A stretch of 26,212 nt of DNA from Candidatus Woesearchaeota archaeon (lineage in GTDB: Archaea; Nanobdellota; Nanobdellia; Woesearchaeales; GW2011-AR4), in the NCBI GenBank assembly GCA_016181305.1, contig JACOZN010000003.1, positions 1 through 26,212 on the forward strand. Direction: 5' to 3'. The position numbers and the translations under genes are program-made. Shown one piece after another: positions 6,243 through 20,330 of this stretch; the first letter of the stretch is position 1, and every line of letters begins with the position of its first letter. A model generated the notes under the pieces. That model made no database searches and was not told the DNA's origin. It saw only the letters and a program-made list of their open reading frames with translations.

Positions 6243-6710
6243 GTGGCAAAGCAGAAAACCATATCCAAAGACATTCCTTTGGCAGAAATTACCTTAAGAA
6301 GATACGAAAAGCCGGCAAACTTGAGCGAGAGGGAGCTTGTGAGAAAGGTTTGCCTCTCAATCGGGCTGCTGCAGCCGGGCGACTCAAGGGACGTTGTTGT
6401 TGATGTCCTGAATGTTTTAATAAAGGCAAAAAAGGAGCAAAGGCAGCTGACAAGCGATGAAGTCTGCAGCCTTGTTATCGAGGAAAGGAAAAGCCTAAGG
6501 CTGCCGATGCTTGGCATAGCATCCTCCAACATAAGAAGGCAGCTCAAAAGGTTAAAGGACATTCTGCTGGTTGAAAAAAGGCTTAACGCCTACAGGATAA
6601 GCGAGTTCAGCAATTTGAATGAAATCTTTGAGGAAAAGATTGAGAAAATATTATTGCCGAGCATAAGCTCAAGAATCAAGGAATACCTGAAAAGGATAGA
6701 GGAGTTGTAA
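6243..6710 (+). CDS. probable winged helix-turn-helix protein
   Basis: GTG start; IASSNIRRQLKRLKDILLVEKRLNAYRI resembles a recognition helix plus wing; TATA-like CTATATATA about 25 nt upstream. Confidence 0.6.
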   Translation: MAKQKTISKDIPLAEITLRRYEKPANLSERELVRKVCLSIGLLQPGDSRDVVVDVLNVLIKAKKEQRQLTSDEVCSLVIEERKSLRLPMLGIASSNIRRQLKRLKDILLVEKRLNAYRISEFSNLNEIFEEKIEKILLPSISSRIKEYLKRIEEL

Positions 6711-6750
6711 AATTTTAAACTTTAATTTTATTTTCATGTCGTCATAAAAA

Positions 6751-6765
6751 CGAAATATTTAAATA
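6751..6765 (+). promoter_or_regulatory. BRE-TATA promoter of the CC1-like gene
   Basis: CGAAA-TA-TTTAAATA. The leader then carries a hairpin (6790-6813) and SD GAGGAGGT (6827-6834). Confidence 0.6.
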
Positions 6766-6842
6766 TATCCTAGGTTTTGTATTCGACGCTAAGACGTGGG
6801 GTGTATCGTCTTAAAAAAAGAAATAAGAGGAGGTTATCGAAA

Positions 6843-7091
6843 ATGGCAGAAAAAGTGGCAAAAGTCGGAGTGAGAAAACAGGCAGGCTACCTATATTTTG
6901 TGGACAAGAGGGGAAACGTAGCCAGGGCAAAGATGTCAAGGGGCGGAAGAAAGAAAGGCAAAGCCAAGGTTGAGGTTGTGGCTAAAGCCGGCGTCAAGAA
7001 AAAATCAGGCTACCTGTACTTTATCGACAAGTCTGGGGACATATCATGCGCCAAGATGTCCAGGGGCGGAAGAAGGAGGAAAAGAAGGTAA
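6843..7091 (+). CDS. small basic protein made of two tandem repeats, CC1-like chromatin/nucleic-acid-binding protein (82 aa)
   Basis: ATG 6843 follows a strong SD. Repeats: KVGVRKQAGYLYFVDKRGNVARAKMSRGGRK and KAGVKKKSGYLYFIDKSGDISCAKMSRGGRR. GYLYFxDKxG resembles crenarchaeal CC1 as I recall it. Confidence 0.65.
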   Translation: MAEKVAKVGVRKQAGYLYFVDKRGNVARAKMSRGGRKKGKAKVEVVAKAGVKKKSGYLYFIDKSGDISCAKMSRGGRRRKRR

Positions 7092-8069: not shown

Positions 8070-8522
8070 ATGAAATGCCCCTACTGCAACTATGAGGAAA
8101 CACAGGTTATTGATACTAGAGAGACTGAAAATCTCGAAGCGACAAGGAGAAGGAGGGAATGCCTAAAATGCAACAAGAGATTCACTACATACGAAAGGGT
8201 TGAGGAAGCCGATATTATCGTCGTGAAGAAAGACGGCAAAAGGGAGAGGTTTGAAAGGAAAAAGCTGATGAATGGTATTTTGAAGGCGTGCGAGAAAAGG
8301 AACATACCGCTTGAAAAAATAGAGAAGCTTGTAGATGATGTCGAGTCTGACTTGAGGAAGAGGGACTCTGTCGAGGTTGAAAGCAAGGTAATAGGCGAAA
8401 TAGCAATGAAAAAGCTGAAAACCCTTGACAAAGTCGCTTACATAAGGTTTGCCTCTGTCTACAGGGAATTCGAGGACATTGACAGGTTTGAAGAGGAGCT
8501 TGAGAAGCTGCAGAAAAAATGA
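8070..8522 (+). CDS. nrdR: transcriptional repressor NrdR (Zn ribbon + ATP cone)
   Basis: MKCPYC, RRRRECLKCNKRFTTYER, VVKKDGKRERF, LDKVAYIRFASVYREF. Confidence 0.96.
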   Translation: MKCPYCNYEETQVIDTRETENLEATRRRRECLKCNKRFTTYERVEEADIIVVKKDGKRERFERKKLMNGILKACEKRNIPLEKIEKLVDDVESDLRKRDSVEVESKVIGEIAMKKLKTLDKVAYIRFASVYREFEDIDRFEEELEKLQKK

Positions 8523-9076
8523 TGATTGGATTGACAGGCAGAAACGCTTCCGGCAAGGGCGAGGCTGCAAATTATCTAAAAGAAAAAGGCTTTATTTACT
8601 ATTCCCTTTCCGATGTAATAAGGGAAGAGGCAACCAAAAGCGGCCTGAAGCATTCGAGGGATAATTTAATTAAATTAGGCAACGATTTAAGGGCAAAATT
8701 CGGAGCAGGTTATTTGGCGCAGCAAATCAATAAAAAAATAAAGCAGCAGCTAAAGAATAACAAAAGCCAAAACTTCGTCATTGACAGCATAAGAAGCCCT
8801 TTTGAGGCTAAGGAACTGATGAAAAACAATGGCTTTGTGCTTGTCGGCATTGACGCTCCAATTGAACTGAGATTCAAGAGGTTGCTTGAAAGAAACAGGC
8901 TTGGGGATGCAAAGGCTTTGGAAGATTTCAAAAGGCAGGAGCAAAGGGAAAATTTAAAAAGCGACACCAATCAGCAGCTTGATGCAACGTTTGGGATTGC
9001 AAATAAAATTATTATCAATAATGGTTCATTGGAGGAATTGCATAAAAAGATTGATGGTTTGTTGAGGGTGCTATAA
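8519..9076 (+). CDS. P-loop nucleoside/nucleotide-monophosphate-kinase-fold protein (UPF0200 / archaeal COG0237-like)
   Basis: IGLTGRNASGKG Walker A, SLSDVIREE, VIDSIRSPFE, IDAPIELRFKR, IINNGSLEEL; ATGA overlap with the nrdR stop. Confidence 0.8.
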   Translation: MMIGLTGRNASGKGEAANYLKEKGFIYYSLSDVIREEATKSGLKHSRDNLIKLGNDLRAKFGAGYLAQQINKKIKQQLKNNKSQNFVIDSIRSPFEAKELMKNNGFVLVGIDAPIELRFKRLLERNRLGDAKALEDFKRQEQRENLKSDTNQQLDATFGIANKIIINNGSLEELHKKIDGLLRVL

Positions 9077-9513
9077 TGACAAGAGCAAGCTGGGAGCAGT
9101 ACTTCATGAACATTGCAAAGGAAGTTGCGACAAGAAGCACCTGCGACAGGAAGCATGTGGGAGCTGTGATTGCGAGAGACAAGACAATACTTTCAACAGG
9201 ATACAACGGCAGCATAAGGGGAATGCCGCACTGCGATGAAGTAGGTCATCTGATGGAGAACGGGCACTGCGTTGCAACAATCCATGCAGAGGCAAATGCA
9301 GTCCTGCAGGCAGCGAAAAACGGCGTAAGAATTGAGGGAGGCGAAGTTTACATAACGGCAAGCCCCTGCTGGAGCTGCTTCAAGATGCTTGCAAACACAG
9401 GCATCAAAAAGATTTATTATGGGGAATTCTACAGGGACGAGAGGATTTTTGACGTCGCAAAAAGGCTTGGAATAGAGCTCATGCACATACCGGTTAAGCA
9501 GGAAGAGCTTTAA
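9076..9513 (+). CDS. dCMP deaminase (ComEB-like, Zn-dependent)
   Basis: RSTCDRKHVGAVI, TGYNG, HAEANA, SPCWSC; TAATG overlap with the kinase stop. Confidence 0.9.
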   Translation: MTRASWEQYFMNIAKEVATRSTCDRKHVGAVIARDKTILSTGYNGSIRGMPHCDEVGHLMENGHCVATIHAEANAVLQAAKNGVRIEGGEVYITASPCWSCFKMLANTGIKKIYYGEFYRDERIFDVAKRLGIELMHIPVKQEEL

Positions 9514-10541
9514 TTTCCGACGAATTTTGAGTAGATTGATCTGGCTTCTTTCTCATTCTTTGCCTTGATTAAAGCCCTGCCATTGCCAAAAATGGTTATT
9601 TTGCCGCTAAAATTTATGCAACAGCCGAAATCAGCTAATTTTCCTATTTTTTTTAATTTATTTTTTAATTCCAAGAAATTTTTAGAATTTCTGGGCACAG
9701 AAAATCTTTGATTTTCTCGCGCATTGAATTGCCTTTTATCCATGCTTTTTGCCTTTATCTGGTAAACACCGTCTCCGCATAACTTCATTATTTTTGATGA
9801 TTTTTCCCCCGACAAATATTCAAAATTTCTTTTTGCGCAGCAGATGCAGTTTTTATTTTTGTTTATTTTTATTTTCAGCAATTCATTTTTCCAGACATCA
9901 AAAAACAGCAAATCTTTTTCATAATCCTTGTTCAATAATATTTTAATTGCTTCATTTGCCTGGATTGATGAAATCAAATTAGTTATCGTGTTCAAAACTC
10001 CTGCAGTCTCGCAGGTGTCAAGATTGGCTGCTTCCTTCAGAAAGCATCTCAGGCAGGCAGTTTTTTTCGGGATTACGTTAAAAACGTAGCCTTTGCTCCC
10101 GACTGCCGAGGAATATATGAATGGGATTCTGCTCTTGATGCAGAAATCATTGATTAAAAACCTTGTTTCAAGGTTGTCAGTGCAGTCAAGGACTATATTG
10201 GTTTTATTCTCTAATATTTTTCCAATATTCTCATAATTTAGGTCGTCAATAAAAAAATCCATTTTAACATCTGAATTAATTTTGCTTAAATGCTCTTTTG
10301 CCGCCAAAGCCTTCGGCTTGCCAATATCTGCCTCATCAAACAATGACTGCCTCTGCAGATTGGATAATTCAGCAACATCCCTGTCAACCAGAATCAGCTT
10401 TCCAATGCCTGCCCTTGCCAGCAATTGCGCGGAAACAGAGCCTAGAGCCCCCAACCCAGCTATTGCAGCAGAGCTTTTTCCAAGGGTTTCCTGCCCTTTT
10501 TTTCCTATTTTCCTGAATATTTCCTGGCGAATGTAGCGCAT
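9510..10541 (-). CDS. ThiF/MoeB/HesA-family E1-like adenylyltransferase (probable activator of the ubiquitin-like carrier)
   Basis: GLGALGS, DRDVAELSNLQRQ, DCTDNLETR, CLRC, TCETAGVL, CICC, and a C-terminal LCG...GRALI domain. Confidence 0.92.
   Translation of the reverse strand: MRYIRQEIFRKIGKKGQETLGKSSAAIAGLGALGSVSAQLLARAGIGKLILVDRDVAELSNLQRQSLFDEADIGKPKALAAKEHLSKINSDVKMDFFIDDLNYENIGKILENKTNIVLDCTDNLETRFLINDFCIKSRIPFIYSSAVGSKGYVFNVIPKKTACLRCFLKEAANLDTCETAGVLNTITNLISSIQANEAIKILLNKDYEKDLLFFDVWKNELLKIKINKNKNCICCAKRNFEYLSGEKSSKIMKLCGDGVYQIKAKSMDKRQFNARENQRFSVPRNSKNFLELKNKLKKIGKLADFGCCINFSGKITIFGNGRALIKAKNEKEARSIYSKFVGN
9675..9725 (-). repeat. 51-nt double-hairpin palindromic element inserted in frame in the E1 gene
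   Basis: AGAAAATC-ttt-GATTTTCT (9699-9717) and AGAAATT-tttag-AATTTCT (9674-9692); encodes NARENQRFSVPRNSKNF. Confidence 0.6.
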
Positions 10542-10616
10542 AAAGGCAGTGAAACAAAAGATATTTTAAATGTTTAGTAAAAACCTTTAAATACCGCTCA
10601 AATAAGTTTTGATTTT

Positions 10617-11078
10617 ATGCCGTCAGAACTCATCAAAAGGCAGAAAGGCGATTTCTTTCGCGACTTCAGCGCATTGGGAAGCCTATGGATTTATGCAGCT
10701 GCAGCTTTATTTTTGCTTGCCTTTAAGAATTATGAATTGCTCAAGAAGCTTGCAGCCGGCTTGGTTTTGATTTATGCGATAGTTATAGCCGTAAGAACAT
10801 TTTACTTTAAGGAAAGGCCGCATAAATACCCCCATAACTCCTACATTGAAAAGCTTGACGCATCGTCCTTTCCAAGCCTTCATTCGGCAAGGACTGCCTT
10901 TTTAGCTGCTGTTTTTGTTGGCTATTTTAATAATGCCATGTCATCCATCTTGCTCATTTTGATGGCCCTGATTATATTGTATTCAAGGATTTACCTTAAA
11001 AAGCATGATTACAGGGACATATTGGCTGGAGTTATTGTCGGGATTATTGTTTATTTTACCATAAACTTTATATATTAG
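10617..11078 (+). CDS. PAP2-superfamily membrane phosphatase
   Basis: KERP, SFPSLHS, SRIYLKKHDYRDILAG; several TM segments; TATA TTTAAATA at 10586-10593. Confidence 0.88.
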   Translation: MPSELIKRQKGDFFRDFSALGSLWIYAAAALFLLAFKNYELLKKLAAGLVLIYAIVIAVRTFYFKERPHKYPHNSYIEKLDASSFPSLHSARTAFLAAVFVGYFNNAMSSILLILMALIILYSRIYLKKHDYRDILAGVIVGIIVYFTINFIY

Positions 11079-11092
11079 TTAACAATTGTTAA
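11067..11092 (+). promoter_or_regulatory. TATA box plus perfect 14-bp palindrome (candidate operator) of the HTH-suf operon
   Basis: TTTATATA at 11067-11074; TTAACAATTGTTAA at 11079-11092; ATG at 11098. Confidence 0.6.
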
Positions 11093-11097
11093 GTGCC

Positions 11098-11496
11098 ATG
11101 CAAGAAACAATGCCGCAGGAAGTTGAAGTCAGGTATATTCTGCCAGCCATACGGAGAGAGCTTGCAAGAATCTTCATTGAAGAGTATAATCTCAGCCAGA
11201 AAGAGGCTGCAAAAATCCTTGGCTTGACAGAGGCTGCAATTTCCCAGTACCGGCACTCGAAAAGGGCAAAGGAAGTCGTGTTTAGCGACAAGGCAATTAT
11301 GGAGATAAAAGTGTCTGCAGCCAAAATTCTCGCAGAAAAGAGCAACAGGCAGAGGGTTATAGCAGAGATGTACAGGATAAGCAACCTCACAACAGTGAAG
11401 CAGATATTATGCGACATACACAGGCAGCAATCCAAGGAATTGGGAAATTGCAATGTCTGCTTTGATGAGGGATTGATAGCAATAAAGACAGATTAA
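11098..11496 (+). CDS. archaeal XRE-like HTH regulator (COG2522-like) with C-terminal C-x2-H-x9-C-x2-C motif
   Basis: PQEVEVRYILPAIRRELA, LSQKEAAKILGLTEAAISQY, LCDIHRQQSKELGNCNVCF; first ATG 11098. Confidence 0.82.
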   Translation: MQETMPQEVEVRYILPAIRRELARIFIEEYNLSQKEAAKILGLTEAAISQYRHSKRAKEVVFSDKAIMEIKVSAAKILAEKSNRQRVIAEMYRISNLTTVKQILCDIHRQQSKELGNCNVCFDEGLIAIKTD

Positions 11497-11508
11497 ATTT
11501 TCAATAAA

Positions 11509-12918
11509 ATGCCGCCAGCAGCCACAGAGCAGGTTTTTGACAAGGACTATAGCAGGTATGGATTTCACGATAAGGAAGAGTATGTCTTCAAGTCGCAGAA
11601 AGGGCTGTCAAGGGAAATAGTCGAGCAAATATCCAAGATAAAAAAAGAGCCTGAATGGATGTTGAAATTAAGATTAAAGGCTCTGGAAGAGTTCTGGAAA
11701 AGGCCAATGCCGCAGTGGGGCGCTAACCTTAACATTATAGACTTCAATGACATTTATTATTATCTGAAACCAACTGACAGGCAGGGTGACACCTGGGATG
11801 ATGTGCCTGAATACATAAAAAACACCTTCACAAAGCTTGGAATTCCTGAAGCAGAGCAGAAATTTCTTGGAGGCGTGGGCGCCCAGTACGAAAGTGAAGT
11901 GGTTTACCACAAGATAAGGGAGGACCTGGAAAAGAAAGGCGTTGTTTTCCTTGACATGGACGGCGGCTTAAGGGAGTATCCTGAAATTGTAAAAAAATAT
12001 TTTTGCTCAGTCATACCTTACAATGACAACAAGTTTGCTGCATTGAACACAGCAGTCTGGAGCGGCGGCTCGTTTGTTTACGTTCCAGCAGGAGTCAAAG
12101 TTGACTTGCCTTTGCAGGCTTACTTCAGGATAAACGCAAGGAACATGGGGCAGTTTGAAAGAACGCTGATAATAGCGGAGCCGGGCTCGAGTGTGCATTA
12201 CATAGAGGGTTGCACAGCCCCAACATATTCTTCAGATTCGCTGCACAGCGCTGTAGTCGAACTGATAGCTATGGAAGGCTCAAGAATCCAGTACACCACA
12301 ATCCAAAACTGGAGCAGCAATGTCTATAATCTTGTCACAAAAAGGGCTTTTGCACATAAGGATGCAACTGTCTTCTGGGTTGACGGCAACCTAGGAAGTA
12401 AAATCACAATGAAATACCCAAGCGTTTATTTGCTTGGAGAAAGGGCAAAAGCCGAGATTTTGAGCGTGGCTTTTGCAGGCAAAGGGCAGCACCAGGATGC
12501 AGGCGGAAAGATTTTGCACCTTGCTCCCAACACAACATCAAGGATTACATCAAAATCAGTCAGCAAGGACGGCGGAAGGACAACATACAGGGGCTTGATT
12601 CATGTTGCAGAAGGCTGCAAAAATGTCAAGAGCCATGTCACTTGCGATGCGTTGATTTTGGACGAGCAGTCCGCTTCCGACACAGTCCCTTACATGGAAA
12701 TAAACGAAAAGGATGTTACAATAGAGCACGAGGCAACTGTAGGCAAGATTGGGGAAGAGCAGCTTTTTTACCTCATGAGCAGGGGCCTGAGCGACGATCA
12801 GGCAAAGACAATGATTGTCTCAGGGTTTATGGAGCCTTTCACAAAAGAATTGCCTCTTGAATACGCAATTGAGCTCAACAGGCTGATTGCGCTGAGCATG
12901 GAAGGTTCTGTAGGTTAA
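11509..12918 (+). CDS. sufB: Fe-S cluster assembly scaffold SufB
   Basis: [55 protein letters not shown]. Confidence 0.97.
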
Positions 12919-12930
12919 TTTGGGGGTTTT

Positions 12931-14124
12931 ATGCCAGATCAAAATCTTGTTACGAAAAAATCTATGGAATTGAAGCAATTTCAAAGCAGCTTTGCGGAAG
13001 AAAGGAAAAAAGAAGCCCTGGCTGTGTTCAAGTCAATCCCGATGCCGAAGGAAAAGGACGAGGATTGGAGGTATACCGATATCGGAAAATTAAGGCTTGA
13101 AAGCTTTGAGCCGTTTGAATCAGAAGGCAAAATAAGTGTTTCCGGGTTTTCAGAGTATTTGGCTGAAAAAGGGGTGATTTTGACTGACATAAATACAGCG
13201 CTTCAAAAATATCCAGTGGCGCAGCAGTATTTCCTTAAATCAATGAAAATTGGCGGCGACAAGTTCGCAGCATTAAATGCAGCTTATTTTGGAAATGGGT
13301 TTTTTTTGCATGTGCCAAAAAATATTGAGATAGATGAGCCGATAAAGCTTAATTTTGAGGTTAGCGGAAAAAGCAGCATATTGCACAATATGATTATTGC
13401 TGAATCAAACAGCAAAGTGAATTTTATTGAAGAGTACACAGGCAAGGAAAATGCCAATGGGCAGCTGAACTCCAGCGTTACAGAAGTGTTTGCCAATGCG
13501 GATTCTAAAATAAACTTTTACCACATAAACAACTGGGCGAAAAATGCCTACAGCTTTGCAAATATTGTCGGCAATCTGGACAGAAACTCAAATGTAAACT
13601 GGATTTCTGGTTGCTTTGGGGGCAGATTAAATAGGCTGAAGATTGACACGATTTTCAGCGGCAATGGCGCTTCATGCAGCAACCTCGGCATTTTCATGGG
13701 CAAAGAGAAAGAGCACGTTGACTTTGCAACCAACATGTTCCATAATGCTGAAAACACGACAAATGACGTGCTTGTTGACGGGATTTTAAAGGATGAATCA
13801 TCGTCTGTTTACAGGGGCTTGATTAAGATAGAAAAGCAGGCGCAGAAAACAAACTCCTACCTTGCAAACCACATCCTGAAATTAGGAGACAAAACCTTGG
13901 CAAACAGCATTCCGAGCCTGAAGATTGACGCCAATGATGTAAAAGCCTCCCATGGCGCAACTGTTGGACAGATTAATGAAGAACATCTGTTTTATCTGAT
14001 GGCTCGCGGCTTGTCAAGAGCAGAAGCTGAAAAGCTGATTGTGGAAGGGTTTTTCGAGCCGATAATACAAAAGATTCCTCTTGAAGAATTAAGGGAGAAG
14101 ATAAGGGGGATGGTGGGGGGATAG
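12931..14124 (+). CDS. sufD: Fe-S cluster assembly protein SufD
   Basis: EDWRYTDI, VYRGLIKI, NSIPSLKIDANDVKASHGATVGQI, FYLMARGL; paralogue of SufB. Confidence 0.93.
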   Translation: MPDQNLVTKKSMELKQFQSSFAEERKKEALAVFKSIPMPKEKDEDWRYTDIGKLRLESFEPFESEGKISVSGFSEYLAEKGVILTDINTALQKYPVAQQYFLKSMKIGGDKFAALNAAYFGNGFFLHVPKNIEIDEPIKLNFEVSGKSSILHNMIIAESNSKVNFIEEYTGKENANGQLNSSVTEVFANADSKINFYHINNWAKNAYSFANIVGNLDRNSNVNWISGCFGGRLNRLKIDTIFSGNGASCSNLGIFMGKEKEHVDFATNMFHNAENTTNDVLVDGILKDESSSVYRGLIKIEKQAQKTNSYLANHILKLGDKTLANSIPSLKIDANDVKASHGATVGQINEEHLFYLMARGLSRAEAEKLIVEGFFEPIIQKIPLEELREKIRGMVGG

Positions 14125-14125
14125 A

Positions 14126-14647
14126 ATGAAACCTTTAGAACAAAAAATGGGTGATCCCGTTGCAAGCGCAACAAATCCTCAGTTAGCAGAGCGCCAAAGA
14201 AGGGCCATAGAATTGGCTAGATACGCCCATAACCCGATTTTTAATCCCCTTGAAACAATCCTAAGCAATGCCGAATTATACTTACAAGGCCCGGACAGAA
14301 ATGACTTGATGGAAAGTTCTTATAACCTGCTCAAAAAATTTGAATACTTTTACTCTGAAGATAATATACCTTACAGAACTATGCATAGAAAAGAAGAATT
14401 TTATCACTTGTTTACTGTAAGAGATTTGCTGTTTGAATTAAGAGAGACTATGGACAAAGTATTTGGAGAAAAAAGCGCTAACAGTTTAAAGGAATTGAAT
14501 GTGTATGTGAATTCAATAATCTTGATTGAACGGTTATATTTTAGAAGTTTAATGAAATTGCTGGGGCAAATAAGAATTTATCCTGAAGCAGCTGATTTTA
14601 TGGTTACTGTCCGGGACAGAGACAATGGAATTGAATGCCACTTTTAA
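14126..14647 (+). CDS. AT-rich hypothetical protein with faint similarity to a degenerate histidine-kinase core
   Basis: Fills the sufD-sufS gap with 1-nt spacers on both sides; LARYAHNPIFNPLETILSNAELYL (H-box-like) and MVTVRDRDNGI (G1-like). Confidence 0.6.
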   Translation: MKPLEQKMGDPVASATNPQLAERQRRAIELARYAHNPIFNPLETILSNAELYLQGPDRNDLMESSYNLLKKFEYFYSEDNIPYRTMHRKEEFYHLFTVRDLLFELRETMDKVFGEKSANSLKELNVYVNSIILIERLYFRSLMKLLGQIRIYPEAADFMVTVRDRDNGIECHF

Positions 14648-14648
14648 A

Positions 14649-15878
14649 ATGCCCTCCACAAAACCACTCATGGACGTTGAACAGATAAGAAAAAACTTCC
14701 CTATTTTGCAGAGGAAAGTGCACAATAAGCCATTGGTTTATTTTGACAACGCAGCAACATCCCAGAAGCCAAAACAGGTGATTGAGGCTATTGGCTTTTA
14801 CTACAAAAACTACAATGCCAACATACACAGGAGCATTCACGAGCTGGGCGAGGAGGCGACTGAAAAATACGAGGAAGCGCACAAGAAAACTGCTGATTTC
14901 ATAAATGCAGATTCGTACCAAAACATTGTATTTACCAAGAATACGACAGAAAGCCTGAACCTTTTGGCTTATTCGCTGACTGCAAAGCTGAAAAAAAATG
15001 ATGAGATTGTGGTTTCGCAGATGGAGCACCACAGCAACTTCGTGCCATGGCAGCAATTGGCAAAGCAGAGAGGATTGAGATTAAAGTTTATTGAAATTGA
15101 CAAAGACGGCAATCTGGACAAAAACAGCATTAAAAAGAATATAACCAAAAAAACAAAAATTGTTTCATTGACCCATATTTCAAATGTTTTGGGCACGATA
15201 AATCCTGTTGAAAAAATCGCAAAGATTGCGCATGAAAATGGTGCATTGATGGTTGTTGACGGCGCGCAGGCTGCTCCCCATATGCCTGTTGATGTAAAAA
15301 AGCTTGATGCTGATTTTTATGCCTTTTCAGGGCACAAGATGCTTGGACCGACAGGAATCGGGGTTTTGTACGGCAAAAAAGAGCTGCTTGAGGAAATGCA
15401 GCCGTTTCTTTATGGAGGGGAGATGATACGTGAAGTAAGGTTTGACGACACAAAATTCAATGACTTGCCGTGGAAGTTTGAGGCAGGCACAATGAACATT
15501 GCAGAAGCCATCGGGTTAAGTGCTGCAATTGACTACTTGAACAAAATCGGGATGGACAATGTGCAAAAGCACGATAGGGAGCTTGTTGAATACGCTATGG
15601 GGCAATTGAAAGGCATTGACGGAATAAAGATTTACGGCCCGGATGAAAGGGACGCTGTTATATCATTTAATCTCGGCAATATTCATGCCCATGACGTCGC
15701 TCAGGTTTTGGACAGCGAGGGAGTTGCGATTAGGGCAGGGCACCACTGCTGCATGCCTTTAATGAGTGTTTTGGGTGTGGCAGCAACAGCAAGGGCAAGC
15801 TTTTACCTTTACAATACAGAAAAAGAAATTGATGTTTTTGTAAATGCACTTAATAAAGTGAATAGGGTGTTTGCATAA
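14649..15878 (+). CDS. sufS: group II cysteine desulfurase SufS
   Basis: YFDNAATSQKP, SQMEHHSN, FSGHKMLGPTG (PLP Lys), RAGHHC (catalytic Cys). Start is ATG 14649 or 14670; the ORF-track start at 14625 overlaps the upstream gene. Confidence 0.96.
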   Translation: MPSTKPLMDVEQIRKNFPILQRKVHNKPLVYFDNAATSQKPKQVIEAIGFYYKNYNANIHRSIHELGEEATEKYEEAHKKTADFINADSYQNIVFTKNTTESLNLLAYSLTAKLKKNDEIVVSQMEHHSNFVPWQQLAKQRGLRLKFIEIDKDGNLDKNSIKKNITKKTKIVSLTHISNVLGTINPVEKIAKIAHENGALMVVDGAQAAPHMPVDVKKLDADFYAFSGHKMLGPTGIGVLYGKKELLEEMQPFLYGGEMIREVRFDDTKFNDLPWKFEAGTMNIAEAIGLSAAIDYLNKIGMDNVQKHDRELVEYAMGQLKGIDGIKIYGPDERDAVISFNLGNIHAHDVAQVLDSEGVAIRAGHHCCMPLMSVLGVAATARASFYLYNTEKEIDVFVNALNKVNRVFA

Positions 15879-15879
15879 A

Positions 15880-16272
15880 ATGGATTCAATCGAGGCAATG
15901 TACCAGGAAAACATTTTGGACCATTACAAGAATCCAAGGAATGCAGGAAAAATAGACAAGGCATCAGTTCATCATCACGAATATAATCCTTTGTGCGGCG
16001 ACGAGATTGAGATGTTTTTGGTTATCAAGGACAAAAAGGTTGCTGATGTCAAGTTCCATGGCAGGGGCTGCGCAATCTCGCAGGCAAGCGCCTCAATGCT
16101 GACAGAGGAGATAAAAGGCAAGAGCATTGAGGATCTGAAGAAGCTGACAAAAGAAAACATTTTAGAACTGCTGGGAATTTCCCTTAGCCCTGTAAGGCTG
16201 AAATGCGCATTATTGTCTTTAGATACATTAAAAAACAGCATATTGATTTTTGAGAAATATATTAAGAAATAG
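15880..16272 (+). CDS. sufU: SufU-type (IscU/NifU-N family) sulfur acceptor/scaffold
   Basis: MYQENILDHYKNPRN, NPLCGD, GCAISQASAS, RLKCALL; no LPPVK; directly after sufS (TAAAATG). Confidence 0.9.
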   Translation: MDSIEAMYQENILDHYKNPRNAGKIDKASVHHHEYNPLCGDEIEMFLVIKDKKVADVKFHGRGCAISQASASMLTEEIKGKSIEDLKKLTKENILELLGISLSPVRLKCALLSLDTLKNSILIFEKYIKK

Positions 16273-16284
16273 GTGAACACAAAA

Positions 16285-17040
16285 ATGACAGACGAACTAA
16301 TCGTTAAGGACTTGCACGTGAGCATTGAAGGGCAGAGAATATTGAACGGCGTGAATCTGGTAGTCAAAAAAGGCGAAGTCTGCGCATTGATGGGCCCGAA
16401 TGGCTCAGGCAAAAGCACTTTGGCTTACACCCTGATGGGGCATCCGAAGTACACAGTTGACAAGGGCGAGGCATGGTATAAAGGGCAGAATGTTTTGGAA
16501 TTAAAGCCTGATGAAAGGGCAAAGCTTGGCTTGTTTTTGTCGTTCCAGTACCCTCAGGAGATTCCAGGCGTTTCAGTATCAAACTTCCTTAGGACTGCCT
16601 ACAATGCAGTAAAGCAAAAGCAAATTGCTGTCCCTGATTTTGTGAAACTGCTGAAGGAAAAGATGAAGCTTTTGAAGATAGATGACTCTTTCAGCAGAAG
16701 GTACTTGAACGAGGGATTTTCAGGAGGGGAGAAAAAAAGGGCTGAGATACTGCAGTTGGCTGTTCTGCAGCCAGACATGGCTGTGCTTGACGAGACAGAC
16801 TCAGGCTTGGACATTGACTCTTTAAAAGTTGTTGCAGAGGGCGTTAACACGCTTATAGGGCCAAACACAGGAATTTTGATAATCACCCATTACCAGAGGA
16901 TTTTGAACTATATAACTCCCGACAGGGTTCACATAATGGTAAAGGGCAGGATTGTGAAGAGCGGCGGCAAGGAATTGGCGCATGAGCTTGAAGCGAAAGG
17001 ATATGATGAGATAATAAAAGAGGCTGAGCTTAGCGCTTAA
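16285..17040 (+). CDS. sufC: Fe-S assembly ABC ATPase SufC
   Basis: GPNGSGKSTL, FQYPQEIPGVS, NEGFSGGEKKR, LDETDSGLDID, ITHYQR. ATG 16285 follows SD AGGTGA; GTG 16273 is the alternative start. Confidence 0.96.
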   Translation: MTDELIVKDLHVSIEGQRILNGVNLVVKKGEVCALMGPNGSGKSTLAYTLMGHPKYTVDKGEAWYKGQNVLELKPDERAKLGLFLSFQYPQEIPGVSVSNFLRTAYNAVKQKQIAVPDFVKLLKEKMKLLKIDDSFSRRYLNEGFSGGEKKRAEILQLAVLQPDMAVLDETDSGLDIDSLKVVAEGVNTLIGPNTGILIITHYQRILNYITPDRVHIMVKGRIVKSGGKELAHELEAKGYDEIIKEAELSA

Positions 17041-17081
17041 AACAAAAAGATATTTAAATTTGTGATGTTGAATACACGAAA

Positions 17082-17588
17082 ATGGGAGAAAAATTACAAA
17101 ATATTGGAAAATATGTTCAAGAATATAGCCAGTATGCGAGGGATGGTTTAATAGAACTTTTTGAACATCCCGTTAAACATACTTCTAAAGCACTTAAAGA
17201 TTTGGTACAAGATTATTGGGATGCTGGATTGGGGGTATTGACTGGACTTGCATTGACAGACTCAGTTAGAGAGTTGATCGGTGATCAAGCTGTAATTTCG
17301 TTATATATTGGTGGAACTTTAGTGAGTTTAGGTGCTCCACAGCTAATGTTTATGGTCAAGCAGGAAAATGAAGTTACAAGGACAGTTAGGATAGGCAGAA
17401 ATGCTATGCTTGAATTTGATGTTATTTATACCACAAGTCCCTATTCTACTAATCATCCCATGTATGTTGTTTCTTTATTTGCCTTTGCTACTCTTTTTGA
17501 GTACATAAGAAGAGTTGGAAAAACCCCATCTATTAGAGATTCCCCAACTTATGATGCATTAGAAAATAAACTTCAAAAATCAATTTAA
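17082..17588 (+). CDS. AT-rich hypothetical membrane protein
   Basis: About three hydrophobic segments; its own TATA-like TTTAAAT about 25 nt upstream. Confidence 0.6.
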   Translation: MGEKLQNIGKYVQEYSQYARDGLIELFEHPVKHTSKALKDLVQDYWDAGLGVLTGLALTDSVRELIGDQAVISLYIGGTLVSLGAPQLMFMVKQENEVTRTVRIGRNAMLEFDVIYTTSPYSTNHPMYVVSLFAFATLFEYIRRVGKTPSIRDSPTYDALENKLQKSI

Positions 17589-17597
17589 ATTGAAAAA

Positions 17598-17942
17598 ATG
17601 CAGCAAGAAACAAAAGAACTCATCGTAACCTTGACAGAAAAGGCAGCCAATAAAGTGAAGGCTTTGCTTGAAAAGGAAAACAAGCAGGGATACGGCTTGA
17701 GGGTGGGGGTTACCCCAGGCGGCTGCTCAAGCTACATGTATGACATAGGCTTGGAGAAAGAGCCAAAGCAGGATGACACGGTAATAGAGGAAAAAGGCGT
17801 TAAAGTCTTCATCAATCCAATGAGCATTGAATTCATGAAAGGTTCTACAGTGGACTATCTGGATTCCTTAACAAACGCTGGCTTTAAAATCAACAACCCG
17901 AATGTAAAAACAAGCTGCGGATGCGGGCATAGTGTTGGGTAA
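17598..17942 (+). CDS. iscA: A-type Fe-S carrier (IscA/SufA/ErpA, HesB family)
   Basis: LRVGVTPGGCSSY, GSTVDY, NPNVKTSCGCGHS. Confidence 0.93.
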   Translation: MQQETKELIVTLTEKAANKVKALLEKENKQGYGLRVGVTPGGCSSYMYDIGLEKEPKQDDTVIEEKGVKVFINPMSIEFMKGSTVDYLDSLTNAGFKINNPNVKTSCGCGHSVG

Positions 17943-17992
17943 ATTTTAAAATTTTGATAATATTTATTAATACACCATTATTTCTGCAGAAG

Positions 17993-18208
17993 ATGGCTAA
18001 AATCCATGTAAATGCATTTATAGGCAGGGAAAACAAAAATGCAAAATTAAAGCTGGAGAATAATTCACAAGTCATTGACTTATTAAAAAAACTAAAAATA
18101 AACCCAGTCACAGTAATAGTCTCAAGAAACAATGAATTGATTTTGGAAGATGAAAGATTGAAAGACAATGACGAGATTAAGATTTTGAGTGTGATTTCGG
18201 GTGGTTAA
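17993..18208 (+). CDS. ubiquitin-like sulfur carrier (ThiS/MoaD/SAMP/TtuB-type), 71 aa
   Basis: Beta-grasp-like sequence ending LSVISGG-stop; first ATG 17993 lies about 20 nt after the TATA-like TTTATTAATA; stop abuts the ttuA ATG. Confidence 0.88.
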   Translation: MAKIHVNAFIGRENKNAKLKLENNSQVIDLLKKLKINPVTVIVSRNNELILEDERLKDNDEIKILSVISGG

Positions 18209-19129
18209 ATGAACTGCTGCAGCCAAAAGCCAATAATGGAAATGCCTTCAGGAGAAAGGCTGTGCAAAACCCATTTCACGGAATATTTTGAAAGCAAGGT
18301 ATTCAACACTATAAGGAAGTTTGACTTGATTGGCAAGGAAGAAAAGTTAGGCATTGCATTATCTGGCGGCAAGGATTCATTAAGCGTCCTGAATATTCTA
18401 AACAAACTATCAAAGCAAAATCCAAGAATAAAAATAAATGCCATTGCAATTAATGAGGGCATTTCAGGCTACAGGGACAGGACGCTTGAAACTGCAAGGG
18501 ACTTCTGTAGCAAAAACAATGTAAAATTGCATATTTTTTCATACAAGGAAGAATTTGGCTTGAATTTGGATGACATGCTCAAAATCCTGAAAGTAAAGCC
18601 GTGCACTATCTGCGGCATTTTCAGAAGGTATCTGCTAAACAAAAAGTCAAAGGAATTAAAACTGACAAAATTGGCAACCGGACATAATTTAGACGATGAA
18701 TGCCAGTCAATCCTGATGAACCAGATGAGGAATGACATTGCAGCAAGCGCAAGGCTTGGGCCAAGGACGGGCATTACCCAAAATGAAGCTTTGTTTGTGC
18801 CGAGAATAAAGCCTTTGTACCTTTGCACTGAAAAGGAAGTTACAGCTTACGCTTTTATAAATGGATTGCTTGACAGCTTCAATGAATGCCCGAACGCTCC
18901 CCAGGCTTTCAGGGCAAATGTAAGGGACATGCTTAACGAGCTGGAGCAAAAGAATCCCGGAACAAAATATTCTATAGTAAACTCATTTTTGCAGACTTTG
19001 CCTTTTCTGAAGGAAAAATTCAAAGGCGGAATAATAAACATCTGCTCAAGATGCAGCGAGCCTGCATCGAATGGTGTCTGCAATGCATGCGTTTATCTGG
19101 AAAAATTGAAGAGAAAGGTGGAGGCTTAA
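18209..19129 (+). CDS. ttuA: tRNA 2-thiouridine synthase TtuA/Ncs6/Ctu1 family
   Basis: SGGKDS PP-loop, CTIC plus ECP (three Fe-S-ligand Cys), TGHNLDD, RIKPL, C-terminal CSRC...CNAC Zn finger. Confidence 0.92.
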   Translation: MNCCSQKPIMEMPSGERLCKTHFTEYFESKVFNTIRKFDLIGKEEKLGIALSGGKDSLSVLNILNKLSKQNPRIKINAIAINEGISGYRDRTLETARDFCSKNNVKLHIFSYKEEFGLNLDDMLKILKVKPCTICGIFRRYLLNKKSKELKLTKLATGHNLDDECQSILMNQMRNDIAASARLGPRTGITQNEALFVPRIKPLYLCTEKEVTAYAFINGLLDSFNECPNAPQAFRANVRDMLNELEQKNPGTKYSIVNSFLQTLPFLKEKFKGGIINICSRCSEPASNGVCNACVYLEKLKRKVEA

Positions 19130-19130
19130 A

Positions 19131-19658
19131 ATGGATGCCAATACAGCAGCTTATATAAAATTTTTGGAGCCGCAAAAAGCTTTTGAGCAGCAATACAAGC
19201 CCAAGCCCAAAGCATTTGCACAAAGTGCAGCCGGGATAGGGCTTGAAAAAAAGTTTTACCCGGGAATTTTGAAAGATATTGAAAGCAACCTTGAAGGGGC
19301 TTTACTGCTCGACGTGCCGTACGAGGAGTGCAAAATCCAGCATCGCTACAAGCAGGGGGTCAAAAACAACATGCTGGTTGCATTATTTGTTTATGACTCT
19401 GCGCAGAAAATAGACAGGATATTCTTCTGGAGAAGCCCTGATGGCAGGCCTTTGGGCGTTTACTACAAGCCAGACTCAGCCAATTGGAAGGACAGCAATA
19501 ATGTCCTTGTCATGGTTTATGATGTAAATAATCTCTCAAGGCATGACGTGGAGAATACAAAAAAATGTTCGGATTCCCACGAAAAAAGGCAAAAAGAAGA
19601 GAACCTCCGGAAAAAAAGGGAAGAACTTGAAGATATGTTAAGCATAGAAAAGGTGTAG
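19131..19658 (+). CDS. hypothetical protein (175 aa), coupled to ttuA
   Basis: TAAAATG junction; composition like the core genes; no motif recognised. Confidence 0.7.
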   Translation: MDANTAAYIKFLEPQKAFEQQYKPKPKAFAQSAAGIGLEKKFYPGILKDIESNLEGALLLDVPYEECKIQHRYKQGVKNNMLVALFVYDSAQKIDRIFFWRSPDGRPLGVYYKPDSANWKDSNNVLVMVYDVNNLSRHDVENTKKCSDSHEKRQKEENLRKKREELEDMLSIEKV

Positions 19659-19727
19659 GCTCAGGATTATCGCAAATTATTTATACCATCATGACATACC
19701 ATTCACACCATTCAGGAGGTGGTAAAA

Positions 19728-20330
19728 ATGCACACATTGCCGAAATTGACATACGCTTACAACGCTTTGGAGCCGTACATTGACGAGCAGACTATGACTA
19801 TACATCATACAAAGCACCATCAGGCTTATATTGACAAGCTGAACGGCGCAGTGAAAGGCACGAAGTTTGAAACAATGAACGTTGACGATATTCTCAAAAA
19901 AATCAATGACGTGCCTGAAAACATAAGGACTGCTGTAAGAAACCATGGCGGCGGGCACAGCAATCATTCATTCTTCTGGCAGATAATGGCGCCTAATGCA
20001 GGGGGCGAGCCGCATGGAAATGCCGGAGATGCCATCAAGCACACTTTTGGCGGCTTTGACAAGTTCAAGGAAGAGTTTACTAATGCAGGCTTGAACAGGT
20101 TCGGCTCTGGCTGGGCGTGGCTCGTTGTGAATAACGGCAAACTGGAAGTTTACAGCACAGCAAATCAGGATAGCCCTCTGATGGAAAATAAAGTCCCAAT
20201 TTTGGGTGTTGATGTATGGGAGCATGCCTATTATCTAAAATACCAAAACAAAAGAGGAGATTATCTCAATGCATTCTGGAACGTCGTCAACTGGAAAAAA
20301 ATCGAGGAAATGTTTAAGAAGGCTAAATAG
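19728..20330 (+). CDS. sodA: Fe/Mn superoxide dismutase with Mn-type signature
   Basis: [35 protein letters not shown]; ATG 19728 after SD GGAGGT. Confidence 0.93.

Follow-up and report, generated by a model that had tools for sequence, protein, structure and literature searches.

Gene content of the locus

The window, the whole stretch of DNA that was analysed, comprised 26,212 nucleotides, and the locus described here occupies positions 9510–20330 of it (Table 1). The host assembly is 1.07 Mb over 22 contigs, 78% complete, with 41% G + C content. The host is an archaeon (TBP was found), and the records of its congeners are titled Candidatus Woesearchaeota. A reduced DPANN archaeon (Woesearchaeota) from groundwater is supported, which bears out the reduced archaeal host proposed in a preliminary description of this DNA. 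Pfam and NCBIfam profile searches placed every element named there where it had been reported, namely the E1, the HTH protein, the suf genes, the A-type carrier, the GG-ending carrier abutting ttuA, and the SOD. The genes listed as SufBCD are present, but their order is B-D-x-S-U-C. The ORF adjacent to the E1 gene encodes a PAP2 phosphatase, not an HTH protein; this passenger and three fast-evolving orphan ORFs inside the row had been omitted.

Table 1 Features of the locus, with profile scores and, where given, model cut-offs.
Feature	Position	Strand	Assignment	Evidence
E1	9510–10541	-	ThiF/MoeB-type E1 (TtuC/UbaA analogue), 343 aa	Pfam ThiF 237.8 bits
PAP2	10617–11078	+	PAP2-family phosphatase, membrane protein, passenger	Pfam PAP2 54 bits
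TATA box and palindrome	11067–11092		Proposed operator	TATA box TTTATATA (11067–11074), then perfect palindrome TTAACAATTGTTAA (11079–11092)
HTH	11098–11496	+	XRE/lambda-repressor-like HTH protein, 132 aa	Weak HTH_3
SufB	11509–12918	+	SufB, no intein here	TIGR01980 722.5 bits (cut-off 346.4)
SufD	12931–14124	+	SufD	TIGR01981 257.8 bits (cut-off 222)
x173	14126–14647	+	Orphan ORF, fast-evolving, sufD-sufS slot	No Pfam/NCBIfam match
SufS	14625–15878	+	Class II cysteine desulfurase	TIGR01979 615 bits (cut-off 475)
SufU	15871–16272	+	Zinc-type sulfur acceptor of SufS	TIGR01994 120 bits (cut-off 92.5)
SufC	16273–17040	+	SufC ATPase	TIGR01978 359.6 bits (cut-off 212.8)
x168	17082–17588	+	Orphan ORF, no Cys, hydrophobic stretches	No Pfam/NCBIfam match
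A-type carrier	17598–17942	+	Fe-S carrier (SufA/IscA/ErpA family)	TIGR00049 124 bits (cut-off 58.8)
Ubl carrier	17993–18208	+	ThiS/TtuB/SAMP2-like ubiquitin-fold sulfur carrier, 71 aa	Pfam ThiS 37.7, SAMP2 29.3 bits
TtuA	18209–19129	+	TtuA/NcsA-family [4Fe-4S] PP-loop tRNA 2-thiouridine synthetase	Similarity, motifs
x175	19131–19658	+	Orphan ORF, fast-evolving slot-filler	No family match
SOD	19719–20330	+	Fe/Mn SOD	Sod_Fe_N 108, Sod_Fe_C 144 bits

The SufB-SufD-SufS-SufU-SufC set is of the bacterial type (B. subtilis/Thermus). SufS carries the SGHK and HHC motifs and has B. subtilis SufS as its best solved relative (516 bits), SufU has C42, D44, C67, and C112 with an Arg at −3 of the last Cys, and the A-type carrier has Cys43, Cys107, and Cys109. 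SufS is the only desulfurase found in the assembly, which yielded neither a paralogue of it nor a second SufB/SufS system.

The E1 protein, encoded by the sole ThiF-domain gene in the assembly, is PRK12475-like over its full length; in an alignment with E. coli ThiF, the counterpart of Cys184 (TCETAGV) and the two CxxC pairs were matched. Its predicted model matched MoeB with Z 33 and rmsd 1.8 over residues 1–236; the C-terminal extension of about 100 aa has a fold without assignment (pLDDT 47–75) and an invariant Cys255, and a rhodanese domain is absent. The Ubl carrier starts at ATG 17993, ends in ...ISGG, and is the only ThiS-family match in the genome; the ATG immediately after its TAA opens the TtuA/NcsA-like gene. 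The product of the latter matched PhTtuA (185 bits), the M. maripaludis U34 thiolase (171 bits), and Thermus TtuA (147 bits), and scored 214 bits with the NcsA model and 199 bits with the Pyrococcus TtuA model, both below cut-offs. It has SGGKDS at residue 52 and a C-terminal CxxC-x8-CxxC, and its C132, C135, and C227 align to cluster cysteines. The assembly holds a single E1, a single ThiS-like carrier, a single TtuA-type enzyme, and a single desulfurase, and neither MoaE nor MnmA was found in this 78% complete genome, so that no sulfur source other than SufS is visible. TtuA is the most plausible client of the E1/carrier pair.

Further Fe-S clients in the assembly are Elp3, TYW1, RLI/ABCE1, four B12-radical-SAM proteins, and one SPASM protein, besides an additional short MoaA-like radical-SAM ORF. 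Since there is no second SufB/SufS system in the assembly, SUF serves all these proteins, and the proposal of one Fe-S client for the locus does not hold.

Candidate regulator and transcription units

An alignment of orthologues of the HTH protein revealed an invariant tail, C105-x2-H108-x9-C118-x2-C121. The PDB profile match was confined to the HTH part, and the protein belongs to no Pfam family. Its homologues formed 930 representative clusters at E ≤ 1e-10. The gene was found in 105 of 151 genomes of the phylum, adjoined Fe-S biogenesis genes in 27 of the 30 loci examined across it, and is fused to a desulfurase in one database protein.

The palindrome TTAACAATTGTTAA ends 5 nt upstream of the HTH start codon. 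Across the genus and the family, and in other families, HTH orthologues are likewise preceded by it, next to a TATA box. Exact sites numbered three in the host genome and 37 in 13 congeners, vs 0 for a reversed control. The palindrome also lies upstream of an FTR1 iron permease, of a carrier + peroxiredoxin + ferritin operon, and of B12-radical-SAM genes, and in relatives upstream of a small ferredoxin. Iron uptake, a second carrier, peroxiredoxin, and ferritin are thus encoded elsewhere and share the operator of the HTH gene, which is at odds with a self-contained locus. Judged from sequence, the HTH protein is an undescribed candidate Fe-S- or metal-sensing autoregulated repressor heading the suf operon. 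Comparative genomics suggests that it would occupy the palindrome that separates the TATA box from the HTH start and repress the operon, its Cys3His tail reporting Fe-S or iron status in a manner that we liken to IscR and SufR.

TATA-like boxes separately precede x168, the Ubl carrier, and the SOD gene, and the operator is absent at all three, so the row probably comprises several transcription units. The locus was not found in any RNA run. The box of the SOD gene is at 19677–19686, and its start is GTG 19719 or ATG 19728. No palindrome was found upstream of Ubl-ttuA or SOD, which appear to be driven by their own promoters; co-regulation of these genes with suf is not supported.

Conservation of the array

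A synteny survey addressed whether the clustering is unique to this genome, as the preliminary description had allowed. The array is kept in six of eight assessable congeners and in both sister genera sampled (G061, G180), and is thus conserved; TtuA is away from suf in two congeners (L042, L043). Across the order, a desulfurase was located within ~10 kb of TtuA in 14 of 51 genera vs roughly 1 expected, the latter being a rough estimate for 1–2 desulfurase genes in a 1.2 Mb genome and the related genomes being non-independent samples. E1 was near TtuA in 8 of 51 genera, and in 25 of 51 a GG-ending ORF (63–79 aa, mostly 64) immediately preceded it. Other families have HTH-MisS-MisU-(ThiI-like)-Ubl-TtuA operons, and their rows also include TudS or PP-loop genes. 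The desulfurase–TtuA linkage recurs across many families. SufS-type genes were present in 116 and TtuA in 174 of 201 genomes of the order, and most genomes having both do not carry them side by side; six long contigs (G060, G194, G209, G134, G211, G228) place them >60 kb from each other.

The SOD gene follows TtuA in six of eight assessable loci of the genus and in none of 51 loci of other genera. It stands beside HTH/Fe-S genes in 3 of the 30 HTH loci of the phylum (two in another order and one in this order). Its membership of the array is accordingly backed by recurrence beside Fe-S genes in another lineage, but only in this genus does it adjoin TtuA, and the gene appears to have its own promoter. 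The PAP2 gene is present in L041 and L044 and absent from L038, L039, L040, and L045. The ORFs x173 and x175 have 27% and 28% identity to the ORFs in the same slots of L039 and L045, respectively, and x175 is missing in a co-occurring strain, in which a contig joins 19025 to 19711 in two runs. Three additional groundwater runs from the same study yielded contigs that bridge sufC-x168-carrier and ttuA-x175-SOD without mismatches, so the odd slots are not assembly errors.

As had been remarked earlier, the window contains no rhodanese. The host assembly has a single rhodanese gene, which encodes tandem domains, lies on a contig of 2 kb, and has no homologue in 36 congeners. Rhodanese domains occur in 33 of 37 genus genomes, and in six congeners (G001, G004, G005, G011, G033, G034) a GlpE-like rhodanese is inside or beside the array, near TtuA. 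In three of these (G001, G033, G034) it has 120 aa and lies between sufC and the carrier, the slot filled by x168 in the host. Neither the host genome nor three well-assembled congeners (G006, G016, G036) have a rhodanese beside TtuA. The missing gene seems to reflect a peculiarity of this genome or a gap in its assembly rather than the design of the system, and the six congeners speak against the direct charging by SufS/SufU that had been tentatively proposed from the lack of a rhodanese.

Proposed working and alternative explanations

We consider it probable that the region is a genuine array of co-directional genes that is conserved in the lineage and joins four modules: the only Fe-S assembly machinery of the genome (the SUF set and A-type carrier, headed by the HTH protein); a ubiquitin-like sulfur relay for tRNA 2-thiolation (the GG carrier, the TtuA/NcsA thiolase, and the divergent single E1); the Fe/Mn SOD; and the fast-evolving filler ORFs with the PAP2 passenger. 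Family assignments and catalytic residues were taken from sequence, and the mechanistic steps were inferred from characterised homologues, with the SufS-SufU mechanism and SufU function as described in PMC13066941 and the TtuA/TtuB/TtuC/TtuD mechanisms as described in PMC6225789. SufS would convert cysteine sulfur to a persulfide and pass it to zinc-SufU, from which it would reach SufBC2D for cluster assembly. The A-type carrier would then hand clusters to all cellular Fe-S proteins, including TtuA, Elp3, TYW1, RLI, and the radical-SAM enzymes. In a second branch, persulfide sulfur would be transferred to the E1-adenylated carrier to give carrier-COSH, in the sister species via the array rhodanese and in the host either without an intermediary or through a donor that was not assembled or not recognised. 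TtuA, with carrier-COSH at its three-Cys cluster, would form s2U, most likely at U34 of Lys/Glu/Gln tRNAs.

The suf operon, Ubl-ttuA, and SOD could instead be independent units that adjoin by chance in a compact genome, their closeness meaning nothing for function or regulation. A TATA-like box stands before each unit, with the operator only before the HTH gene, most genomes of the order have SufS-type and TtuA genes on separate contigs or a long way from each other, TtuA is elsewhere in the congeners G021 and G024, and the variable filler ORFs indicate that the row tolerates insertions. We nevertheless regard such a neutral neighbourhood as unlikely: desulfurase and TtuA lie within about 9.5 kb of each other in more genera than the rough expectation, their linkage recurs with another desulfurase type (MisS/MisU), other gene orders, and ThiI-like and TudS genes, and a rhodanese, of use to the relay alone, sits inside the row of sister species. 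At the other extreme, the row could be a dedicated, self-contained chain for TtuA alone, shielded by SOD and with charging by SufS/SufU by design. All parts that TtuA requires do lie within 11 kb, the window is devoid of a rhodanese, and the one in the assembly is without a counterpart among the congeners. The Fe-S client census with one SUF system for all, the rhodanese domains of the genus, and the apparent SOD promoter and genus-restricted TtuA linkage make this highly improbable. Of the preliminary interpretation, clustering and linkage are supported, and one client, self-containment, direct charging, and co-regulation are not.

The TtuA-type enzyme might make s2U/s2T54 in the way of Thermus and Pyrococcus, or the E1/carrier might be mainly a protein modifier through SAMP/TtuB-type conjugation. 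The best solved match is P. horikoshii TtuA, an s2T54 enzyme (185 bits vs 171 for the U34 thiolase), the NcsA and Pyrococcus TtuA models score nearly alike below their cut-offs, and TtuB and SAMP2 are dual-function proteins. We find these options doubtful, because neither MnmA nor a TrmA/RumA-type m5U54 methylase was found in the 78% complete genome, and the groundwater host, at 41% G + C, has no thermophile signature. Elp3, the enzyme for the xm5 part of xm5s2U34, was identified with 617 bits, above cut-off, and the TtuA-like enzyme, by these sequence criteria, probably targets U34.

Gene content of the array and its SUF assembly genes

The array was mapped from an ORF listing together with Pfam and NCBIfam profile searches. 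All genes that the preliminary description had named between 9510 and 20330 were confirmed by the ORF listing, profile matches, catalytic residues, and bridging contigs, but its map needed correcting in the order of the genes, at PAP2, at three orphan ORFs (x173, x168, and x175), and at the start of the carrier gene. Contigs from three further groundwater runs bridged the junctions sufC-x168-carrier and ttuA-x175-SOD without mismatches. The array is real, kept at family level, and functionally coherent, but neither self-contained nor single-purpose. Its parts are of known kinds; new are the order-wide survey, the rhodanese located within the row in sister species, the census of Fe-S clients, and the cross-lineage and genome-wide evidence that the HTH protein has an operator and a regulon.

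Features of the array, with TATA-like boxes and operator sites of the same genome (window positions unless a contig, C, is named)
Feature	Position	Strand	Profile match or context
ThiF/MoeB-type E1, 343 aa	9510-10541	-	ThiF 237.8 bits
PAP2 phosphatase	10617-11078	+	Pfam
TATA box	11067-11074		before HTH
Operator site	11079-11092		before HTH-suf operon
HTH, 132 aa	11098-11496	+	weak HTH_3
SufB	11509-12918	+	TIGR01980 722.5 bits (cut-off 346.4)
SufD	12931-14124	+	TIGR01981 257.8 bits (cut-off 222)
x173	14126-14647	+	without family
SufS	14625-15878	+	TIGR01979 615 bits (cut-off 475)
SufU	15871-16272	+	TIGR01994 120 bits (cut-off 92.5)
SufC	16273-17040	+	TIGR01978 359.6 bits (cut-off 212.8)
TATA-like box	17049-17059		before x168
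x168	17082-17588	+	without family
A-type carrier	17598-17942	+	above NCBIfam curated cut-off
TATA-like box	17960-17971		before carrier gene
ThiS/SAMP2-like carrier, GG end	17993-18208	+	ThiS 37.7 bits (cut-off 22.5), SAMP2 29.3 bits (cut-off 27)
TtuA/NcsA-like thiolase	18209-19129	+	TIGR00269 99 bits (cut-off 63)
x175	19131-19658	+	without family
TATA-like box	19677-19686		before SOD
Fe/Mn SOD	19719-20330	+	Sod_Fe_N 108 bits, Sod_Fe_C 144 bits
Operator site	C1:36790		before short ORF and FTR1 iron permease
Operator site	C20:22173		before HAD-type gene
Operator site, one mismatch	C1:29957		before operon C1:28263-29970 (L122)
Operator site	C15:119292		before B12-radical-SAM gene

At 78% completeness, the host assembly spans 1.07 Mb over 22 contigs. 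Archaeal SSU rRNA was not found in it; it encodes TBP, which places the host in the archaeal domain. Other genomes of the genus (congeners), deposited as Candidatus Woesearchaeota or Nanoarchaeota, came from groundwater, and together these data agree with the earlier view of the host as a metabolically reduced DPANN archaeon. A 1 Mb symbiont-type archaeon of the DPANN thus keeps a complete bacterial-type SUF system, physically wired to tRNA 2-thiolation.

SufB, SufD, SufC, SufS, SufU, and the A-type carrier all exceeded NCBI curated cut-offs (NCBIfam). SufS carries SGHK at 235 and HHC at 373 (PLP lysine and catalytic Cys), SufU has the zinc-site residues C42, D44, C67, and C112 plus R at -3, and three Cys are present in the A-type carrier. 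These genes form a SUF assembly set for which assembly and transfer activity is predicted. The closest solved relative of SufS was the B. subtilis enzyme (PDB match), and the Gram-positive-type SufSU SUF system was used for comparison (PMC13066941). B. subtilis sufCDSUB shares SufB, SufD, SufC, class II SufS, zinc-type SufU, and the catalytic residues with the window, whereas the window's host is an archaeon, its order is B-D-S-U-C with orphan ORFs between, and its row begins with an unrelated regulator and ends in an A-type carrier and thiolation genes. Archaea mostly keep the two-gene SMS and/or MIS systems (PMC12192291). The best PDB matches hint at a possible bacterial origin of the SUF genes; any such transfer would be old, since SufS-type genes occurred in 116 of the 201 genomes of the order. 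SufB of the genus locus L038 (14309-16858, minus strand) carries an intein, an in-frame insert of ~1.1 kb that contains Hint and LAGLIDADG domains; the intein also occurs in L039, L040, L041, and L079 (sister genus), and the window's SufB is without it.

The preliminary description took the whole supply chain to serve one Fe-S client, which the census of Fe-S proteins contradicted. Eight radical-SAM matches were found in the assembly, comprising Elp3 (617 bits, cut-off 350), TYW1 (401 bits, cut-off 318), four B12-binding proteins, one SPASM protein, and one short MoaA-like ORF, and RLI/ABCE1 was also present (795 bits). At least ten clients are counted, TtuA among them. With this many Fe-S proteins and no second SufB, SufS, or MIS pair found in the host assembly, the SUF genes represent its general Fe-S machinery.

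Linkage of desulfurase and thiolation genes across the order

Nine TtuA loci of the genus were fetched, one on a contig too short to judge. Six of the nine kept E1 beside the row HTH-SufB-SufD-SufS-SufU-SufC-carrier-Ubl-TtuA (Ubl, the GG-ending carrier), and five of these six ran into SOD; in two (G021 and G024), TtuA lay elsewhere. The suf genes also adjoined TtuA in G061 and G180, which represent two other genera of the same family, so the clustering is not unique to this genome, a possibility that had been left standing earlier.

TtuA was present in 174 of the 201 genomes of the order; genomes flagged unpublished (G148, G157, G168, and G219) contribute four to this count and one to the SufS count, and all loci described here come from other genomes. 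About 20 kb around TtuA was surveyed in 51 genomes of different genera, with neighbours scored using the window's proteins. A desulfurase lay near TtuA in 14 of these (four true SUF and about ten IscS/IscU-like, MIS type), HTH in nine, and E1 in eight. By a rough estimate based on 1-2 desulfurases per 1.2 Mb, and with related genomes not being independent, approximately one desulfurase-TtuA neighbourhood would be expected. Directly upstream of TtuA, 25 of the 51 loci had a GG-ending ORF (63-79 aa, mostly 64). SUF-TtuA adjacency itself is not the rule: most SufS-type genes were on other contigs, and on six long contigs the SufS-type gene and TtuA were >60 kb apart.

The minimal ISC system of archaea (MIS; MisS/MisU) offers a parallel in arrangement. 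MisS-MisU operons of other Woesearchaeales families start with this same HTH and run into Ubl-TtuA; tight HTH-MisS-MisU-(ThiI_fer/THUMP protein)-Ubl-TtuA operons were found at L102, L108, L056, L098, and L097. The window's SufS-SufU hold the place equivalent to MisS-MisU, although the window has full SUF and MIS was not found in the assembly. By gene order, the window appears as the SUF-based version of a recurring row of desulfurase, U-type, and tRNA-thiolation genes. Such recurrence supports a functional desulfurase-TtuA link and leaves sulfur transfer itself unproved. The wiring argues for cysteine-derived persulfide, not free sulfide, as the sulfur source of tRNA thiolation in these archaea, and the repeated operons assign to MIS, the least studied of the Fe-S systems, a definite role that can be put to the test.

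Two MIS-type loci had additional genes. At L082, a TudS-type 2-thiouracil desulfidase (6428-6940; Pfam 2-thiour_desulf, 152 bits) was located between MisS and MisU, ~2.5 kb upstream of TtuA, placing thiolation and de-thiolation enzymes in one neighbourhood. At L048, profile tests identified a PP-loop/NFACT-R protein in the HTH-MisS-MisU row. This co-directional row (L048:5727-12903) contains HTH, MisS, MisU, PP-loop/NFACT-R, NrdD (anaerobic ribonucleotide reductase, also profile-tested), and TtuA; a Cys-rich 65-aa ORF, a DUF1858-like and a glutaredoxin-like ORF, a likely activase, and a ferredoxin-like ORF were recognised by eye. It ties in redox and Fe-S-dependent functions beyond tRNA thiolation.

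The proposed thiolation relay and its sulfur donor

The components of the relay (E1, carrier, and thiolase) are themselves familiar. The TtuA-like gene encodes an SGGKDS PP-loop at residues 52-57, and its C132 and C135 (PCTICG) and C227 (NECP) align to the cluster cysteines of P. horikoshii TtuA (PCSYCG and EECP). The C-terminal CxxC-x8-CxxC is present (C279, C282, C291, and C294), and the N-terminal finger is degenerate, with CC at 3-4 in place of CxxC, followed by C19-x2-H22. Scores were below the equivalog cut-offs of NcsA (NF047749, 214 bits against 500) and the Pyrococcus-type enzyme (NF049949, 199 against 450). Only the family-level model TIGR00269 was passed, and we place the protein in the TtuA/NcsA family, with neither subfamily nor target position fixed by the models. 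The ttuA ATG directly follows the stop of the carrier gene, whose product ends in ...ISGG; it is assigned as a ubiquitin-fold sulfur carrier adjoining its client gene, and formation of its thiocarboxylate by E1 is predicted.

Alignment to E. coli ThiF showed that E1 has both CxxC pairs and a counterpart of ThiF Cys184; C163, C166, C177, C232, and C235 were invariant. The AlphaFold2 model of E1 matched MoeB in fold with Z 33, and its C-terminal 100 aa had pLDDT values of 47-75. This C-terminal part aligned to no listed chain, nearly all VIA-align rows stopping by residue 236-252. A 17-aa in-frame insertion in it, ARENQRFSVPRNSKNFL (9675-9725), was shared only by the window and L038 among aligned genus/order homologues. 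The trio of nrdR, a UPF0200-type kinase, and dCMP deaminase (8070-9513) adjoins E1 and is conserved in the genus (loci L038, L039, L041, and L045); in other genera, L079 has the kinase and deaminase and L095 all three.

ThiF-domain, ThiS-family, and TtuA-type genes each occur once in the genome, and neither MoaE nor MnmA was found in the assembly (78% complete); TtuA is therefore the most plausible client of the E1/carrier pair. The target position is not settled by the matches, because the best solved match was Pyrococcus TtuA and both the NcsA and TtuA equivalog models were below cut-off. Judged by gene content and habitat, U34 is the likelier target than U54: Elp3 is present, no TrmA/RumA-type m5U54 methylase was found in the same 78% complete assembly, and the habitat is mesophilic.

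We regard the relay as a variant of two known systems, Thermus TtuABCD and Haloferax UbaA/SAMP2/NcsA. In the s2T54 pathway of Thermus thermophilus, TtuA/TtuB/TtuC/TtuD act with IscS/SufS, and a cysteine desulfurase supplies the sulfur (PMC6225789). Shared roles are the PP-loop [4Fe-4S] thiolase, the adjoining GG ThiS-like carrier, the ThiF-type E1, and a rhodanese-like helper (here in sister species), whereas the window's module is embedded in an archaeal suf row, its E1 has an extra C-terminal domain, the rhodanese of its lineage is single-domain, GlpE-like, and not in this genome, and the target is probably U34 and not U54. With the s2U34 systems of Haloferax volcanii (UbaA/SAMP2/NcsA) and eukaryotes (Uba4/Urm1/Ncs6), it shares a U34 thiolation route together with Elp3; the carrier passes the SAMP2 cut-off, and NcsA was the thiolase's best NCBIfam match. 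The window's proteins, however, score far under the NcsA (214 of 500) and UbaA (165 of 450) equivalog cut-offs, and its E1 is nearer the bacterial ThiF/MoeB PRK12475 type and lacks the fused rhodanese of Uba4 (no Pfam Rhodanese match). In the literature found, no desulfurase/SUF-operon linkage was described for the Haloferax and Uba4 systems, in contrast to the window.

A profile search bore out that the window contains no rhodanese, from which direct charging of the carrier by SufS/SufU had been proposed. The family search detected rhodanese domains in 33 of 37 genus genomes, and in six congeners (G001, G004, G005, G011, G033, and G034) a ~120-aa single-domain rhodanese with a GlpE-like CYHVVC loop was located 1.5-4.5 kb from TtuA on the same contig. 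In G001, G033, and G034 it lies between sufC and the A-type carrier, so that sister species encode all four Ttu-like roles and the desulfurase in one row; the window's equivalent slot is x168, which has no cysteine. The in-row rhodanese is absent from this genome and from three well-assembled congeners. Direct charging may apply here, but the six congeners speak against it as the general design. Two candidates for a donor elsewhere in the assembly were set aside. A tandem rhodanese (270 aa, loop CGSVGT) is located on the 2 kb contig C17 and has no homologue in 36 congeners; the contig's G+C equals the genome's, and it may be accessory or the result of misbinning. C17:1-2050 (L001) also holds the 3' part of an ORF that resembles sulfite/nitrite reductase by eye. 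The other, a weak rhodanese-like match on contig C18, was a 73-aa ORF without the active-site loop.

A candidate regulator, its predicted operator, and the array's probable transcription units

The array piece most worth an experiment is HTH, the first gene of the suf row. Weak HTH_3 matches and a PDB profile match to lambda-repressor-like proteins indicated an XRE/lambda-repressor-like fold. In its tail, C105, H108, and C118 were invariant and C121 nearly so in an alignment reaching down to 34% identity; Cys3His is also the ligand set of IscR. The profile search returned 930 representative clusters at E<=1e-10, and in an HTH-conditioned sample of the phylum, 105 of 151 Nanoarchaeota genomes had the gene, almost always in single copy. 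In 27 of 30 loci its neighbour was MisS, SufB, SufC-SufB, or a U-type gene. One ENA metagenome protein (P0140, 506 aa) carries HTH at residues 9-120 and a class V aminotransferase/desulfurase domain at 130-486; it may be a genuine fusion, or neighbouring HTH and MisS genes were called as one by read-through.

The window promoter reads TTTATATA - 4 nt - TTAACAATTGTTAA - 5 nt - ATG of HTH. The palindrome was exact upstream of all six genus HTH orthologues examined, had one change in the sister genus, and was recognisable in other families in the form TTAAC-N4-GTTAA; in other orders, the consensus was exact in 13 of 30 loci and near-consensus in six more. This genome has three exact and three one-mismatch sites, four of which directly follow a TATA box a few nt before a start codon; a fifth has a TATA box and its gene ~170 nt downstream. 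Exact sites occurred in all 13 congeners searched (1-5 each, 37 in total; reversed control, 0), recurring before FTR1 (five loci), HTH-suf, the B12-radical-SAM gene, and a small single-cluster ferredoxin (four loci), the G008 ferredoxin site being directly downstream of TtuA. Behind the C1:29957 site, one operon combines a fusion of DUF1858 with an A-type carrier, a peroxiredoxin of the AhpC/TSA kind, and a ferritin-like protein; here a second Fe-S carrier is linked to iron storage and to defence against peroxide.

A repressor site between the TATA box and the start that blocks polymerase recruitment is the usual archaeal pattern, and from the position of the palindrome HTH would act in this way; both its DNA binding and its cofactor are inferred from sequence. 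Its Cys3His tail points to a sensor of Fe-S or metal, which would resemble IscR and SufR in role and not in fold. Membership in either family was rejected, the DNA-binding domain being XRE-type and neither ArsR/DeoR (SufR) nor Rrf2 (IscR). HTH resembles SufR of cyanobacteria and mycobacteria and IscR in being a small, predicted DNA-binding protein with a putative Cys-rich ligand set, and in its position as first gene of the operon, as for Rv1460/SufR (PMC6034842). Comparison also predicts for HTH, as in those regulators, a palindromic operator at the promoter of its own gene and control over Fe-S and iron genes. HTH differs in its fold, in being covered by no Pfam or NCBIfam family, in its archaeal TATA promoter, and in a cofactor that is putative.

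Taking these data jointly, we lean slightly towards an undescribed, phylum-wide archaeal family of Fe-S/iron-sensing repressors with a TTAAC-N4-GTTAA operator and an Fe-S/iron regulon. The regulon would include SUF or MIS assembly, FTR1 iron uptake, Fe-S carriers, peroxiredoxin/ferritin, ferredoxin, and radical-SAM genes, and in many lineages the operons may extend from the desulfurase and U-type genes to Ubl-TtuA, ThiI-like, and TudS genes. If this reading is true, it would suggest that in DPANN archaea a main task of the MIS/SufSU pair, which is poorly understood, is to supply tRNA with sulfur. HTH and the palindrome would constitute a defined regulator-operator pair with a predicted regulon, from a phylum without a cultured genetic system, and the pair is testable in vitro with two purified components.

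Within the window, gene spacing was tightest within HTH-sufB...sufC and within Ubl-ttuA-x175. Taken with the TATA-like boxes, this spacing leads us to expect about four co-directional units. Before Ubl-ttuA, SOD, E1, and x168, similarity to the operator was at chance level only (up to 3 mismatches), and the sequence does not indicate direct control of ttuA by HTH.

The metal of SOD was not assigned, its MnSOD model score (243 bits) being below the equivalog cut-off (363). SOD followed TtuA in six of eight assessable genus loci and was absent from all 51 TtuA loci of other genera. Independently, in another order of the class, SOD, a small ferredoxin, HTH, and MisS formed one co-directional row at L173 and L174 (G274 and G240). 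SOD also lay beside HTH/SufB at L179, and it is therefore plausible that SOD recurs together with genes of Fe-S biogenesis. A shield for TtuA is too specific a reading.

No family match was obtained for x173, x168, or x175 (Pfam, NCBIfam). A reading of x173 as a degenerate histidine kinase had no support at E<=0.01 in either collection, and the ORF behaves like the other fast-evolving ORFs in such slots. Nearly every gap between conserved row genes in the window and L038-L045 holds a 70-235-aa ORF without family match; same-slot ORFs of different species had 25-33% identity, some none detectable, against 70-90% for the flanking genes. They are either small proteins that evolve very fast or open-frame spacers that do not code for protein. 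In a co-occurring strain without x175, the contig joins 19025 to 19711.
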